Of a stretch of DNA of 64,000 nucleotides, positions 1,238-63,753 are shown in pieces; the first letter of the stretch is position 1, and every line of letters begins with the position of its first letter. The position numbers and the translations under genes are program-made. The DNA comes from a virus. The notes beneath the pieces were generated by a model, which saw only the letters and a list, made by a program, of their open reading frames with translations, did no database searches and was not told the DNA's origin. Where the stretch lies: positions 1 through 64,000 of the IMG/VR virus record IMGVR_UViG_3300044846_001842. One strand, given 5' to 3'.

Positions 1238-3385
1238 ATGAGTCAATTAAGATCAATTAGAAACCCTGATGGGATTTGGATTAATACAGAAGTATTCAGA
1301 GAAGAGGCTAGGAAGTTTCAAAAATATGGTACTTACTGTCTAGATCCTTGGGGTTCTCCTGATTGGTTTTCTTATTGGCAAGAACAAAGAAATAGAATTA
1401 TTAATGGTTACTCTGTAGGTGGAGTTAAAGTTACAGGTGACCATTATTTCTATTTAAACTTCTGTCCTATCCTTAAGGCTGAGGATATGAATGCTAAAAA
1501 GTCTGCTAAGATTACAGACTTTCCTGACTTTTGGGATGGAGATTATAATTACTTTTGGGTTAGAGAAATTGCTTTTAATGGTATAGTTGATGGACTAGGA
1601 TTACCTATTGAAGAATCAAATAGTCTTTCTGATTTGTACAGAGGTCTTAAACTTGAAGTTAAAATTCAAGAAGAATACTTAAATGGGGGGTATAATCTTA
1701 TTGTAGGAAAATCTAGACGTAAAGGATACTCCTATAAGAATGCAGCTATTGCAGTTAAGAATTATCTATGCTATCCTAAGACCCTTACTATCTTTGGGGC
1801 TTATGAAAAGAAGTTCCTTTACCCTAAAGGTATCTTTACAATGTCTTCTAACTACCTCAACTTTATCAATGCTAATACTGCTTGGGTATACCCTAAAGAT
1901 ACAGTAGATAAGATGGACCACGTTAAGGCTTCTACTATTGAATATAGAAATGGAGTTAAAGTAGAGACAGGATTTATGTCTGAAATTATGGCACTTACTT
2001 TTAAAGATAATGCAGATGCTGCAAGGGGTAAGGATGCCAGAGATGTAATCTTTGAAGAGTCTGGAGCTTTTGGTACACCTGGATTATTGAAAGATTCTTA
2101 TGTAGCAACTCAAGACTGTGTAATGGCAGGAGCTATTAAGACAGGAATGATTACTATATTTGGTACATCAGGAGATATGGAAGGAGGTACTGCAGATTAT
2201 TCTGAGATGCACTCTAATCCACTTAGGTTTGGTATGTTACCTTTTCAAAATATCTGGGATGAAGATTCTGAAGATATGAAATGTGGTTTCTTCCATCCTA
2301 TTACTTGGAATATGGAAGGTTACTATGATGAGCATGGTAACTCTGATAGAGAAGGAGCTAAGACTCTAGAACTTGCTCAAAGAAAGGTTTTATTAGATAA
2401 TGGTGCAACTTCTGCAGATATTCAGAAGAGAATGCAAGAGAAACCATTGGGACCTTTTGAGGCATTTGGAATGGTATCTACAAATAACTTTCCTGTACTA
2501 GAACTTAAAAGACAACTTGAGATTGTCAAAGCCAAGAACCTACACATGATTATGGGGACTCCTGTCAAACTCTTTTATGACTATGAGTCTAAAAAAGTTA
2601 AAGCAGAACCTATACTTGATGGTACAGCTAATGTAATCTATAGACAAAAACCTGATAACACTTCTCTAGAAGGATGCCCTGTGATTTATGAGTATCCTGC
2701 TGAGGTTCCTCAAAGGGGAGCTTATAAAATAGGGTATGACCCTTACAGACAAGCCCAAGGAAGTTCCTTAGCTGTTGTAATTGTATACAAATCAGTAATT
2801 GTAGGAGAAAGAACTAAAAGAATAATTGTAGCAGAATATGTAGGTAGACCAGGAGAAGCAGATGATGTAAATTACATTTGTAGATTATTTGCAGAGCTTT
2901 ATAATACTACTATTATGCATGAAAATGAAGTAACCCATGTTAAGGATTACTTTAGAAGAAGAAAACAATTACACTATTTAGCTTATCAACCTGATGAAGT
3001 TATAAAGAAGAATGTGAAGAATTCTAAAGTTAACAGACTTTATGGATGTCACATGATAGATCAACTTAAAGATGCAGGTGAAAAATACATTAAATCTTGG
3101 TTACTAGAAACACTTGATTATGATGATGAAGGGTTTCCAATTAGAGCTTTAGATCAAATATATTCTATAGGATTACTTGAAGAGTTAATTAGCTATAATA
3201 GAAAAGGTAACTTTGATAGGGTTATGGCTCTTATGCAAGTCATGTTTCAAGATCAAGAAGATTTACATGGTAAAGAGTATCAACCTAAGTTTAATGGAAA
3301 TAAAAAAGCAAAACAGCTATTAGATATGATGGGAAGTATGTATCAAAAAAATAATAACAAGAACTCGCTACAAAGATTAAATTAA
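1238..3385 (+). CDS. terL: Terminase large subunit
   Basis: Walker A-like KSRRKGYSY, Walker B VIFEESG, FGTSG motif, nuclease motifs IGYDPY and NFDRVMA; directly precedes the portal gene. Confidence 0.95.
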   Translation: MSQLRSIRNPDGIWINTEVFREEARKFQKYGTYCLDPWGSPDWFSYWQEQRNRIINGYSVGGVKVTGDHYFYLNFCPILKAEDMNAKKSAKITDFPDFWDGDYNYFWVREIAFNGIVDGLGLPIEESNSLSDLYRGLKLEVKIQEEYLNGGYNLIVGKSRRKGYSYKNAAIAVKNYLCYPKTLTIFGAYEKKFLYPKGIFTMSSNYLNFINANTAWVYPKDTVDKMDHVKASTIEYRNGVKVETGFMSEIMALTFKDNADAARGKDARDVIFEESGAFGTPGLLKDSYVATQDCVMAGAIKTGMITIFGTSGDMEGGTADYSEMHSNPLRFGMLPFQNIWDEDSEDMKCGFFHPITWNMEGYYDEHGNSDREGAKTLELAQRKVLLDNGATSADIQKRMQEKPLGPFEAFGMVSTNNFPVLELKRQLEIVKAKNLHMIMGTPVKLFYDYESKKVKAEPILDGTANVIYRQKPDNTSLEGCPVIYEYPAEVPQRGAYKIGYDPYRQAQGSSLAVVIVYKSVIVGERTKRIIVAEYVGRPGEADDVNYICRLFAELYNTTIMHENEVTHVKDYFRRRKQLHYLAYQPDEVIKKNVKNSKVNRLYGCHMIDQLKDAGEKYIKSWLLETLDYDDEGFPIRALDQIYSIGLLEELISYNRKGNFDRVMALMQVMFQDQEDLHGKEYQPKFNGNKKAKQLLDMMGSMYQKNNNKNSLQRLN

Positions 3386-59813: not shown

Positions 59814-60743
59814 TTATCCTTCATCATCAATTAGTTCTATTGGTCTAGTGTCAGTCCTTAGTCTTGAGCCTGTTTCAAAACTTCCTCTTGTAGTATACAC
59901 TTCCACAGGTAACGTAGGAAAATCTTCTGAAGAAACAGTCAAGTTAACATATCCAGACTCTGTATGGGCAGAGTCTAAAATATTGGATTCTGTTAAAAAT
60001 AAATCAGGAATTTCTTCAATAGGATTGACAGATTCAAATAATAGAGCTTCTTCTTCAATAGGTAATTCCTCATTTTGAGTTTGTACTTCTAGTTCATTAA
60101 ATACATAAGAGTCCTCTTCTTCTGTATATAAGAATGTTGGTAGTACTTTACTCATGTACTCTTCTAACTGGCTAACAGAGTTAGCTTTAGGGATTTCAAA
60201 TACGTCTGCAAAGGTATTTCTTTCAATTTCTTGAGAGGTAATCACTCTGACCTCTATACCTTTTTCATAGCAAGACATTAATATTTCTTTTTGAAATCTT
60301 CTGTTAAGTGAAGCAAGATCTGGATTAGTAAAAAAAGATGTGGAGTAAAACAAAACAAAATCTTTATAGTCAACAGAGTTGACTTCTTCCCGATACCTTA
60401 TTTCAGAGAATTTTTTAGTATCTGGGTTTAAGTATTTTTCTCTAGGCATTGCAAAAACTATCATAGGTATCCCTGTTTCAGTAAACATGACACCTTTAAC
60501 AAAAAAGTATATTCTTTTCCCTATAGTTATTTTTGTTGGAGAAATAGCTAGTTCTAAAGCATCTTTAATATTCTTAAGCGTATTTGCTTTTTTTAAATTG
60601 CCTGATTCTAAACAAGGTTTATGATAATACCCTTCCTTTGAAGTTTTAAAGGCAAAAATAGGAATATATTTATTTGCTGTTATAGGAGTTTTAAAAAATT
60701 TATCTTCTATGTGATAGCCTACACTTTTTGGATTTGCTATCAT
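59814..60743 (-). CDS. Hypothetical protein translationally coupled to ThiF
   Basis: ATGA overlap with the ThiF stop; acidic C-terminal tail. Confidence 0.55.
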   Translation of the reverse strand: MIANPKSVGYHIEDKFFKTPITANKYIPIFAFKTSKEGYYHKPCLESGNLKKANTLKNIKDALELAISPTKITIGKRIYFFVKGVMFTETGIPMIVFAMPREKYLNPDTKKFSEIRYREEVNSVDYKDFVLFYSTSFFTNPDLASLNRRFQKEILMSCYEKGIEVRVITSQEIERNTFADVFEIPKANSVSQLEEYMSKVLPTFLYTEEEDSYVFNELEVQTQNEELPIEEEALLFESVNPIEEIPDLFLTESNILDSAHTESGYVNLTVSSEDFPTLPVEVYTTRGSFETGSRLRTDTRPIELIDDEG

Positions 60744-61336
60744 AATTCTGAAGCAGAATAATTCATAGGAACTACAAATTCATAGTAGAAAGGAACTTCT
60801 CTGATAGTTTCTCCACTATAAATGTTAGCAATATGATTAGTAAAATAGGAAGTCATAAGAGTTCCTATCATAGCTGCTGTATGAGAACTTTGCTTCATAG
60901 TACAAGGGGCTTCCTCCACTATTGAATCATGAAACAAATGGTCTTTTTCATACCTGTCAGCATTTTCCGGAGTAACACAGAATATCTGTAATTGCTCTAT
61001 CTCTAGTCTACCATCTATGAAGATTGGAGTCACCCCTGGTGGAGCTATACTCCAGGACTTCTTCCAGACATGAAACAATGCATTTCTTGCCTCCATGTTA
61101 TCAAAAGCAGAAAACATAAAGTAATGTGTCATTGTATTCATATCAATTCTCTCATTGAATGTAGATATAGGAGTATTACAAAAAGAGTTTACAACTCTTG
61201 CTACTGCTGTTACTTTAGCTTGACCTAAGTCAGTCTGCATAAATAATTGACCACCTAGATTATGGTCTTCTACAGTATCAAAGTCATAGAGGTTAACTCT
61301 AAAACCTATCTTAGTTAAGAAATAACATAACCAACT
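60740..61336 (-). CDS. ThiF/E1-like adenylyltransferase, exon 2
   Basis: SWLCYFLTKIGFRVNLYDFDTVEDHNLGGQLF is in frame with the 166-aa ORF; GQAKV, AFDNMEAR, IDGRL, EEAPCTMKQ. Confidence 0.88.
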   Translation of the reverse strand, partial: SWLCYFLTKIGFRVNLYDFDTVEDHNLGGQLFMQTDLGQAKVTAVARVVNSFCNTPISTFNERIDMNTMTHYFMFSAFDNMEARNALFHVWKKSWSIAPPGVTPIFIDGRLEIEQLQIFCVTPENADRYEKDHLFHDSIVEEAPCTMKQSSHTAAMIGTLMTSYFTNHIANIYSGETIREVPFYYEFVVPMNYSASEL

Positions 61337-61551
61337 CGACGTATCTACATATTTCTATATAGGTCGGACTATATCTTCACCCTTATAGGGTGGGGGACAC
61401 TTTTTCATTAAGGGACTAACCTTAATTACTTCCTGTTATTAAGCCACATTGCTGTGGCTCAGGTAGTCTCTGAACCTTCCATCTCTGATGGCTTGGCTGC
61501 TGATTAACAACTTAGTATAAGCTTTTTTCTCACTTATATACCTTAGTGGCT

Positions 61552-62358
61552 TTAGTCTTCCAGCAATTCATCCCCTCCACCAATAGTATTACTACTATTG
61601 GGGGCAGTTATAACTTGGCTCATTTTATTACAACTTTTACATTTTATCCTTGTTTTCCCATTTCTAAATCCATTATAAGAAGTAGACAGAGATAAACATT
61701 TAGGACATTGTATCCTTTCTTTTTGTTCATATTCTGCAATTACATTTAATTTTTCATATTTTCTTTGTAGAAAAATTGAAGCTTCCTTGTAAATATATTC
61801 TCCAAATAATTTAGAGACAGAGTAAGAACTTGTGTATAATTTATAATAATCCAAAGTTCTTAAACCTATTCCTTTAAAAGAACAAGTCAAATTTACTGGA
61901 ATTCTGTTATCATACAATTGTTTAATTATTTCTGTTATAAGAGTAAAAGATGTTCCTCCTATTTCAATTTTTAAATTAAAAAGTTTTTGAGAATACACAC
62001 TCCCATCTCCATCAAAATAACCTCTTATGAAATGGTTCATAAATTGTAAAGGAATATGATTAAGAGAAAGTAATTCCCTATTAACAGAAGATTTTAAACA
62101 AAAAACTCCCTTTTCTAAAAGATCTTTTTTAAGTTTTTTAGAAGTGCAATCTAGCTTATATGCTTTTGCATGAGATTTTCTTATTGTAAAAAAAGGAAAA
62201 ATTTGAACAAGTTTTTGTAAAAGCATTAAATCTTGTTCATGTAAAGTGATACCACAATTATTATTAGCAGAACAAACATACCCATCTGCGTAAAAAAGTC
62301 CTAACAAATATGCTTTTTCTTGTGTATCAAGTTGTTGTAATTCATTTGCATATTTCAT
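61552..62358 (-). CDS. Intron-encoded LAGLIDADG homing endonuclease with C-terminal Zn ribbon
   Basis: YLLGLFYADG and FIRGYFDGDG motifs; CPKC..CKSC. Confidence 0.9.
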   Translation of the reverse strand: MKYANELQQLDTQEKAYLLGLFYADGYVCSANNNCGITLHEQDLMLLQKLVQIFPFFTIRKSHAKAYKLDCTSKKLKKDLLEKGVFCLKSSVNRELLSLNHIPLQFMNHFIRGYFDGDGSVYSQKLFNLKIEIGGTSFTLITEIIKQLYDNRIPVNLTCSFKGIGLRTLDYYKLYTSSYSVSKLFGEYIYKEASIFLQRKYEKLNVIAEYEQKERIQCPKCLSLSTSYNGFRNGKTRIKCKSCNKMSQVITAPNSSNTIGGGDELLED

Positions 62359-62378
62359 ATTTTCTAAGTTTTAGAATA

Positions 62379-62410
62379 CAAAAATACAAACTATAAATGA
62401 GATATACAAA
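62379..62410 (-). promoter_or_regulatory. Intron-internal promoter TTTG-N20-TATTTTTG for the endonuclease
   Basis: -33 at 62407-62410, -7 at 62379-62386, 20 nt upstream of the ATG at 62358. Confidence 0.65.
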
Positions 62411-62417
62411 TATATCT

Positions 62418-62519
62418 ACCAATACCACCTGCACCACCCACCATACACACTTCATTATTTCTAGGGAACCAAGGGGCATCTTTAAATCTAGACTGTTGGG
62501 TTGTGCTATTTTGTCTCAT
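62418..62519 (-). CDS. ThiF/E1-like adenylyltransferase, exon 1 (34 aa)
   Basis: MRQNSTTQQSRFKDAPWFPRNNEVCMVGGAGGIG with the GxGxxG nucleotide-binding loop; start overlaps the JAB stop; spliced product 232 aa. Confidence 0.88.
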
Positions 62520-63753
62520 TTTCTATAAATTTGTTTATCATTGCATTAATAGTTTTAATAGTCAGCCCTATCTCTGGATAAAGTTGTTTTACATCTTCTA
62601 GCAAATCTACAATTTCATGAGTGTACTGCACAAATTCAGCAGCATTAGCATTAGGAAAATGTTGAGCAAAGTTCTTAGCATAATCATTAATTACAGATTT
62701 TGCTATTTCTTGAGGCGTTAACTCATACTCAGCTACAATGTCAAGAACATCTTCAATAGTTTCTTCTTCCTCTAAGGGACTATTAGTGTAACTAAATAAA
62801 GACTTAGCAAAGTTGTAGATAGACATAGTTTTTAAATCTTCTTCTTCTAAATCATCAATAAGATTACCAGGAACCTCCCAATCTTCAAAAAGTTTTTTTT
62901 GATTATTTTTAAGATTTTGTGTAAAATTTTTGTTCCAGCTTTCCATTTCTCTTTCTTCTTGAGATTTAAATTGCTTAGAATTGTTTTTATTGGGGGGATT
63001 ACTAGAAGTTCTTTGCCATCCTTGTCCTATTTTAAGAAGGTCTGGAGTAGTAGGAAAGTTAGATGCTACTTTTTTTACAGGTTTAGGCTCCATGATTTTT
63101 GCTACTTGAGCTGAGAACTGATCTGTCACTAAGATTGTAGTCTTAGGAGCATCAATATCACAATCATAGATAAACAACTTCTTAGTGTTAACTTCAAAGT
63201 CTTGTTTTTCAATGATATAATCTTGGCCTTGTACATTTTTAGCTGTATAAGGAACCTGTTTAATATCCTTCTTAGCTTCTCCAATAAAAGCAACTTTGGC
63301 AATAAAGTCCATATAGTTGTTTACAATAAGAGAAAGATAGAAGTTATGTGCTGGAGCATTGTCATTAAGCTCTGCCATATCTGTACCTGAGAAGAAAACT
63401 GCCATGCTGTGATGACTGTGAACATGGCCTAGTTTCCAAGTACATCTTTCTTCAAAATCTTCTTCAATGAAGTCAATAAATCTATCATCAAGATGGTATT
63501 CAGTATAAGCTGAACTACCCATATCTAAAGGAAGTATTGTCTTTAAAGTAATTTTGAATGTGCCAGGTTTTTCAATACTACCTTCTGTAGTATAAAATAG
63601 AGCACCTGACCACTCTACTTTTGGTATGTTTTTACACAGATACTGAATCTGATGTAATACTTCTATTGGCATTACCAAGGGAATTGTGAATTTTAATTCC
63701 ACTCTGGATAACTGCTTTGCTATAGATTCTTGACTCAAGCTGGCTAAGGACAT
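62506..63753 (-). CDS. JAB/MPN+ (JAMM) metallo-isopeptidase
   Basis: VEWSGALFY catalytic Glu and GHVHSHHSMAVFFSGTD (HxH-x7-S-xx-D); start codon uncertain. Confidence 0.88.
   Translation of the reverse strand: MSLASLSQESIAKQLSRVELKFTIPLVMPIEVLHQIQYLCKNIPKVEWSGALFYTTEGSIEKPGTFKITLKTILPLDMGSSAYTEYHLDDRFIDFIEEDFEERCTWKLGHVHSHHSMAVFFSGTDMAELNDNAPAHNFYLSLIVNNYMDFIAKVAFIGEAKKDIKQVPYTAKNVQGQDYIIEKQDFEVNTKKLFIYDCDIDAPKTTILVTDQFSAQVAKIMEPKPVKKVASNFPTTPDLLKIGQGWQRTSSNPPNKNNSKQFKSQEEREMESWNKNFTQNLKNNQKKLFEDWEVPGNLIDDLEEEDLKTMSIYNFAKSLFSYTNSPLEEEETIEDVLDIVAEYELTPQEIAKSVINDYAKNFAQHFPNANAAEFVQYTHEIVDLLEDVKQLYPEIGLTIKTINAMINKFIENETK

Follow-up and report, generated by a model that had tools for sequence, protein, structure and literature searches.

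The locus described here lies on the minus strand of the window, by which we mean the whole stretch of 64,000 nucleotides that was analysed, namely the first 64 kb of an 80,106-bp IMG/VR virus record; all features below are read on that strand. The source phage is a freshwater virus with an 80-kb genome, a relative of Flavobacterium phage FpV4, and has a JAB-ThiF gene pair in common with the Crassvirales. The upstream gene of the pair (62506..63753, 415 aa) encodes a JAB/MPN-type metalloprotease with the JAMM motif HVHSHHS...SGTD; the protein matched two PHROGs of unknown function, and a Pfam search with it gave no match. Its stop overlaps by 14 nt the start of an E1/ThiF gene that is split in two. 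Exon 1 (62418..62519) supplies 34 codons (MRQ...CMVGGAGGIG), its last nucleotide, U62418, being the U of the 5' splice site, and exon 2 (60740..61336) supplies 198 aa and the stop, beginning with SWLCYFLTKIGFRVNLYDFDTVEDHNLGGQ, of which AGUUG (61332-61336) is the exon strand of P10. The gene order JAB, E1, unknown, unknown and PD-(D/E)XK exonuclease is identical in FpV4, and the JAB-E1 order is also seen in Crassvirales, the E1 gene being present in some phages and not universal among them.

Exon 2 alone matched the Pfam ThiF family above the cut-off (PF00899, 35.5 bits, E = 7.8e-9), and the 95% identical, intronless orthologue L085 matched it with 58.2 bits over residues 25-127, in one stretch across the junction. 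The host gene is ThiF/MoeB/E1 adenylyltransferase-like and includes the GxGxxG loop, the function expected from its family being adenylation of, or thioester transfer to or from, a ubiquitin-like or sulfur-carrier protein. The insertion point (marked ↓ throughout) falls in the codons of this glycine-rich nucleotide-binding loop, GxGGxG↓S, between ...GGT ATT GGT at the end of exon 1 and AGT TGG TTA at the start of exon 2. Joining the exons restores the frame and gives a 232-aa protein (GGAGGIG↓SWLCYFL), which is gap-free at the junction against the 228-aa FpV4 gp50 ThiF (57% identity over exon 2) and is likewise colinear, without a gap, with the ThiF protein of the crAss-like phage cr111_1. The first-pass annotation, made from the letters alone, was thus right in placing the insertion directly after the GxGxxG loop (GIG↓SW).

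Between the exons lies a group I intron (61337..62417; 1,081 nt, phase 0), which runs from AGATAT to ACGTCG and has its omega-G at 61337. The Rfam covariance model RF00028 aligned end to end (model positions 1-253 of 253) with positions 61345-61625 (-), scoring 89 bits against a gathering score of 50 bits, and this was the sole Rfam match within the window. A search with a group I covariance model had been named as a check on the original proposal of a group I intron at 61337-62417 in an E1/ThiF gene, and its outcome upholds that proposal, as do the exact boundaries: in the DNA alignment against the three closest relatives, which are intronless (L085-L087), the gap is exactly the intron. With AG standing both at the intron start and at the start of the 3' exon, the DNA junction is ambiguous by two bases, and we chose the stated cut because no other leaves the exon ending in U and the intron in G, as the group I rule requires. 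Two other candidates were rejected, namely an intein, the Hint domain being absent and an RNA core present, and a simple interruption of the gene by a free-standing endonuclease, given the exact group I boundaries and the core.

The core helices P3-P4-P6-P7-P8, with the P3/P7 pseudoknot, were seen in the Rfam alignment and in the minimum free energy (MFE) fold, and P2-P9, including P7.1 and P7.2, were all reproduced by an unconstrained MFE fold. P3 pairs GGGGAUG (61569..61575) with GUGUCCCC (61393..61400), both strands being placed by the Rfam alignment and by relatives; P4 pairs UGCUGG (61560..61565) with UCAGCA (61498-61503), and P7 pairs GACUA (61464..61468) with UAGUC (61367-61371). The Rfam alignment and the MFE fold together place P6/P6a (61474..61497), the P8 hairpin CACCCU-AUA-AGGGUG (61378..61392) and the P9 hairpin with its GAAA loop (61345..61362). 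A 62-nt insertion between P7 and P3' folds into two hairpins, P7.1 (61432-61463) and P7.2 (61407-61426; together 61407..61463), which are the extra helices marking subgroup IA. The element is accordingly classed as a group I intron of subgroup IA, and its self-splicing is predicted from sequence.

The internal guide sequence UAACUGCC at 61610-61603 pairs with the exon GGU through the wobble U62418.G61605, and its UAACU (61606-61610) pairs with AGUUG of the 3' exon to form P10. We fixed this 3' strand of P1 because it lies directly upstream of P2 and because the wobble G of the Rfam model aligns with G61605. The model's own local 5' strand of P1 is unpaired here (NC marks), and a local guide sought in the first 59 intron nucleotides was not found, no CC being present there. 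The position of the guide and its pairings with GGU and AGUUG are those originally described; P1 itself turned out to be longer than described, with GGU↓AGAUAUA (62411..62420, from pairing and fold) facing UAUAACUGCC (61603..61612) over 10 positions that include one U.G pair and one A.A mismatch. The exon share of P1 is 3 bp only.

Support for P10 from relatives comes as compensatory change, with AGUUG/UAACU in the window, AGUUAU/AUAACU in L005 and GGUC/GACU in L006. For P1 the guide strands paired with their own partners at a mean of 7.9 of 12 positions and with cross partners at 6.6, a weak difference, and we saw one clean compensatory pair (L005 vs L121/L280); in the endonuclease gene this pair amounts to a synonymous change from UCA to UCC. 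The longer P1 extension, as read from the sequence, is accordingly the less well supported part of the helix.

The 5' splice site and the 3' strand of P1 are separated by 805 nt, which leaves a P1 loop of ~795 nt; the endonuclease gene therefore occupies L1, as had been proposed from a distance of ~800 nt. This gene (61552..62358, 268 aa and a stop) is read in a frame different from that of exon 1. Its product matched Pfam LAGLIDADG_3 with 43.7 bits (cut-off 22.5; E = 3.3e-11), and both LAGLIDADG motifs are intact, with D25/G26 and D116-G119 invariant among the aligned homologues. A Foldseek search with the predicted fold returned PI-PfuI, I-Tsp061I and I-OnuI at E-values from 3e-10 to 1e-7, and the structural matches also include I-AniI and the bI3 maturase. 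From its modelled fold, of the alpha-beta-beta-alpha-beta-beta-alpha type, we read the protein as a monomeric, double-motif LAGLIDADG enzyme, which would be expected from its family to cleave the intronless allele. The AlphaFold2 model has a mean pLDDT of 88, with residues 252-268 below 50. Towards the C-terminus a CxxC...CxxC zinc ribbon (residues 215-251; window 61603-61713) resembles the Dof zinc finger of plant CDF1 (8xuf_C, E = 2.9e-4). Some of the endonuclease homologues carry Pfam PF02701, and the fusion of a Dof-like finger to a LAGLIDADG enzyme is apparently unusual.

The end of this reading frame is also ribozyme. The last 20 endonuclease codons (VITAPNSSNTIGGGDELLED) serve as P1', P2, P3, J3/4 and P4 as well, and the UAA stop (61554-61552) falls within the 5' strand of P5, in the conserved CUAA, so that the overlap from P1' to the stop amounts to 61 nt. 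The RNA GUU AUA ACU GCC CCC AAU AGU AGU AAU ACU AUU GGU GGA GGG GAU GAA UUG CUG GAA GAC UAA is thus read as the peptide V-I-T-A-P-N-S-S-N-T-I-G-G-G-D-E-L-L-E-D-stop and would fold as P1', P2 with its GUAA loop, P3, J3/4, P4, J4/5 and the start of P5. Helix by helix, the guide corresponds to codons (A)UA-ACU-GCC (I-T-A), the 9-bp P2 hairpin CCAAUAGUA-GUAA-UACUAUUGG (61580..61601) to PNSSNTIG, the 5' strand of P3 to G-G-D and that of P4 to L-L. The claim that the last ~20 codons encode the guide, P2, P3 and P4 holds on this mapping, which carries the frame on to a stop in P5.

Homologues show how widely this overlap is kept. We detected 1,082 homologues of the endonuclease, many of them on ~100-kb contigs and most between 258 and 277 aa long. 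Conservation of the tail TAPxxSN..G.DELLE extends down to 37% overall identity, and the tail TAP..SN..G.DELLE is present in 91 of the best 120 of the 1,082. Among these best 120 the reading frame stops in P5 (..ELLEx) in 91 and after P2 (..SNI) in 12, and continues as far as P7 (..GSETT) in 3. Inside the ORF the 5' strand of P3 varies between AGGGGAUG (G-D), AGAGGGUG (E-G) and ACAGGAUG, and the P3' strand, ~170 nt downstream and outside the ORF, varies to match (UGUCCCC, UGCCCUCU, CGUCCUG). P2 is kept as an 8-9-bp stem with a GUAA loop by many compensatory changes among five relatives. Pairs in relatives were counted by anchored extraction, without a covariance model, as MAFFT misaligned the 3' halves of L006 and L261 among the seven ribozymes. 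More than 100 introns in IMG/VR contain the string GAAUUGCUGGAAGNCUAA, and 98 of 105 lack a long ORF in that frame. Because P3 covaries, P2 compensates, the tail is predicted to be disordered and GAAUUGCUGGAAGNCUAA occurs mostly without an ORF, we conclude that RNA structure constrains the tail, the RNA motif and not the protein being the primary constraint. The endonuclease ORF runs into a pre-existing ribozyme motif and borrows its UAA as a stop.

These data bear on a different account of the tail, in which an intron with an 805-nt L1 and only 3 bp of exon in P1 is unable to self-splice, the LAGLIDADG protein acts as its maturase and the conserved overlap is there to serve this dependence. 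LAGLIDADG proteins that act as maturases are known in I-AniI and bI3, and the presence of I-AniI and the bI3 maturase among the structural matches speaks for such a role, as does the fact that the arrangement with the endonuclease in L1 has been kept across a family of ~1,000 proteins. The core, however, is complete (89 bits), the conservation of the disordered tail is explained by RNA pairing, and 12 of the best 120 homologues do without DELLE. Phage introns of subgroup IA moreover self-splice as a general rule, and we regard dependence on a maturase as improbable. We favour instead, with high confidence, the reading of the whole element as a mobile subgroup IA intron in the E1 loop whose P1 spans 805 nt and whose L1 endonuclease gene overlaps the core.

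On this preferred reading, and by group I chemistry, guanosine would attack after U62418 and the freed exon, aligned by P10, would attack after G61337, restoring GGTATTGGT-AGTTGGTTA and with it a functional E1. As is typical of LAGLIDADG enzymes, the endonuclease would cut intronless alleles around GGTATTGGT↓TCTTGG, and repair would then copy the intron in (homing). By analogy with I-TevI, a ribosome on codons 249-268 would melt P1-P4, which would make splicing and full translation of the endonuclease mutually exclusive on one RNA molecule. Exon 1 ribosomes meet a UAG in their frame (62391..62393), 25-27 nt into the intron and 9 codons past exon 1; stops placed just inside an intron, as this one is at 25 nt, commonly serve to bar exon ribosomes from it. 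The leader fold was not more stable than that of shuffled sequence (z -0.56) and gave no sign of sequestration of the start codon.

Competition of this kind would never arise with the E1 pre-mRNA if the endonuclease were made from its own transcript, from a promoter inside the intron. The minus strand does contain two -7 boxes of the Bacteroidota type (TAnnTTTG), at 62407-62414 and 62379-62386 (21-56 nt ahead of the AUG), and intron endonuclease genes of T4 use their own late promoters (PMC3073962). Yet the window holds no more TAnnTTTG motifs than expected (96 against 97), the leader is AT-rich, and a transcript of this sort would still fold P2-P9 across the last 20 codons. A sigma-70 promoter scan was set aside as irrelevant to Bacteroidota hosts. 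We consider an internal promoter a possible but somewhat unlikely source of the enzyme.

To place the intron among its relatives we read the genomic contexts of those endonuclease homologues that could be traced in IMG/VR or in one metagenome scan. Among 50,697 deposited phage genomes none held a close homologue of the enzyme (best 34% identity), megablast of the intron locus against deposited phages gave no match, and neither did the endonuclease as a single-protein query against IMG/VR. The close contexts that were retrieved all lie in the E1 gene beside a JAB/MPN gene, in crAss-like and related phages. Twelve other metagenomic or viral contigs have endonucleases of the same family, in introns that occupy three different sites of E1 genes next to JAB. 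The site of the window, GIG↓S, recurs in L005, L120, L121, L122, L259 and L280, several of them human-gut assemblies with a cr111-type E1; the endonucleases there are 48-57% identical to that of the window and sit in distantly related E1 genes. A second site, NLG↓GQ, is used in L006, and a third, DG↓R/K, in L007, L008, L052 and L123. Remoter relatives of the endonuclease (30-33% identity) lie in a GHKL ATPase gene (L124, L126), and in L124 the guide is AGCCCAAU, matching the exon AUUGGGU, with the peptide IAQ replacing TAP. The 5' exon ends in GGU at all three E1 sites and in the GHKL ATPase gene.

Several side observations were made on these contigs. RF00028 found no ribozyme on L007 or L008 even at E <= 0.1; both carry the same endonuclease-IGS-P2 5' part (L007:3270-3550, L008:3290-3550) and could be folded by hand as group I, with P3 as GAAUUCC/GGAAUUC and P7 as GAGUAU/GUACUC. 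On L261 (minus, 464-1345) a GIY-YIG gene of 201 aa stands 5' of the ribozyme, directly downstream of the 3' end of another intron, and ends ...DELLED at the same P3-P4-P5 stop; the 5'-ORF read-through arrangement therefore recurs in an unrelated endonuclease family. On the metagenomic relative L120 (364-1848), where E1 carries the intron, the JAB/MPN gene upstream of E1 is interrupted too: a stretch of ~260 nt, perhaps an ORF-less intron, breaks it at its JAMM histidine motif (...AGLVH / QMSHCSFSTFFSGTD). The same-family endonuclease at the same E1 site in L259 (9025-9600 and upstream) contains an in-frame TAG, which reflects either decay or TAG read as sense, as it is in some crAss-like phages. 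Lastly, the source phage holds a second group I intron outside the window (G000 C1:72899-73133 plus ~830 nt further 3'; L004:638-1735, minus; 51.8 bits), whose host is a SNF2/DEAD-like helicase gene and whose 269-aa GIY-YIG gene lies in the P8 loop, a conventional peripheral-loop arrangement.

The unit of endonuclease, IGS and P2 has the guide GCC(C), retuned in L124 to AGCCCAAU, and is combined with two or more different cores, one being the standard IA core and another that of L007/L008. With guide and P2 lying inside the ORF, DNA-target and splice-site specificity are inherited as one gene. Although speculative and on balance rather doubtful, it is conceivable that endonuclease, IGS and P2 moved as a unit, a portable targeting cassette and not an accident of ORF extension.

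Presence and absence of the intron were followed in the E1 relatives and in further samples. All 25 of 25 E1 relatives in IMG/VR (95% to 39% protein identity, three of them 95% identical) have a contiguous, intronless GIG(S)↓SW. The serine codon after the junction is AGT here (61334-61336) and TCT in all of the close intronless relatives (L085-L096, position 3001-3003), and the AG of AGT pairs with the guide in P10; this two-base synonymous switch probably reflects a co-conversion tract from the donor or selection for P10. A sediment metagenome run holds the intron-bearing allele, in which 2 of 387 and 3 of 156 nt differ inside the intron. The third sediment piece spans the 5' junction; of the 12 differences among its 256 nt, no fewer than 9 lie in exon 1, which is 102 nt long. 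The intron is far more alike between the two samples than its host gene and so bears the signature of recent transfer.

No spliced RNA of the intron-bearing allele was found among the assembled contigs of the RNA libraries searched. In two freshwater metatranscriptome assemblies a contig joins 61334 to 62418, with GA on the plus strand (TC coding) and ~4% mismatches; we rejected it as a spliced product, the TC in place of AG at the junction marking a ~96%-identical intronless TCT relative. The missing spliced RNA, and the fact that E1 is not universal in phages, would suit a decaying intron that no longer splices and has left the phage E1 as a pseudogene. Against this stand every core helix, the U.G pair, the omega-G and P10, all of them intact, together with an endonuclease ORF that retains both catalytic motifs, two open exons whose protein is 95% identical to intronless relatives, and the nearly identical copy of the intron in a second sample. 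Decay is thus very improbable indeed, and the mobile, splicing-competent intron remains our reading.

Parts of this arrangement are already described. The closest parallel is I-Ssp6803I in the tRNA-fMet intron of Synechocystis PCC 6803, with its ORF in P1 and a 61-nt P1/P2 core overlap (Edgell 2011, PMC3073962, Table 1); there as here an endonuclease ORF in P1 overlaps the core with its end. Unlike I-Ssp6803I, a PD-(D/E)XK enzyme in a bacterial tRNA gene, the enzyme of the window combines LAGLIDADG motifs with a zinc ribbon and is housed in a protein-coding gene of a phage; its 61-nt overlap extends through P3 and P4 to the beginning of P5. With T4 td/I-TevI, in which ribosome occupancy of core sequences impairs splicing (PMC3073962), the intron shares its phage subgroup IA character and an endonuclease ORF that ends inside the core, whereas the GIY-YIG enzyme, the P6 loop, the 20-nt overlap and the nucleotide-metabolism gene are particular to I-TevI. 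Endonuclease genes in the P1 loop are also known from Hypomyces cox3-i2, a fungal mitochondrial IA1-like intron with a LAGLIDADG gene (PMC4964425), and from Physarum Pp.LSU3/I-PpoI, which has no core overlap (PMC3073962, Table 1); both resemble the present intron in the use of L1 and differ in their hosts, which are organellar or nuclear rDNA. The 'core creep' hypothesis (Edgell, Chalamcharla and Belfort 2011, PMC3073962) posits 3' extensions into the core that are of variable length and run as far as the next in-frame stop, and the extension is indeed variable in length among the homologues: the stops in the family of the window, in P2, P5 or beyond P6, fall as it predicts.

In crAss-like phages, group I introns are found at high density in conserved genes and come with endonucleases of the LAGLIDADG and other families (Yutin 2021, PMC7886860); the hosts named are MCP, PolB, primase, ATP_43b and RNAP subunits, and ThiF and MPN are described there as conserved neighbours. 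A mention of ThiF as an intron host was not found in the main text of that paper or in the supplements searched, and its analysis concerned endonuclease domains rather than ribozyme structure. A literature search yielded no paper combining ThiF, a group I intron and a phage. The first-pass annotation had called an E1-like host unfamiliar; the case is not a one-off, given the 12 other contigs. A P1 ORF overlapping the core having been described before, what is new is the host gene and the insertion sites. The E1 intron family is an unusually clear, family-wide case of overlap between ORF and ribozyme and not a new kind of element.

These findings correct the annotation of the split E1 gene, which would otherwise be called as a 42-aa stub, an 'endonuclease' and a truncated ThiF, and the same correction applies to similar JAB-E1 modules in metagenomes of crAss-like phages. 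They also extend the list of conserved motifs targeted by homing endonucleases to an ATP-binding loop, that of a ubiquitin-activating-like enzyme. Finally, the ~1,000 homologous endonucleases with a translated ribozyme core at their C-terminus constitute a large natural data set for 'core creep', and one relevant to the question of how a single RNA accommodates both translation and ribozyme folding.
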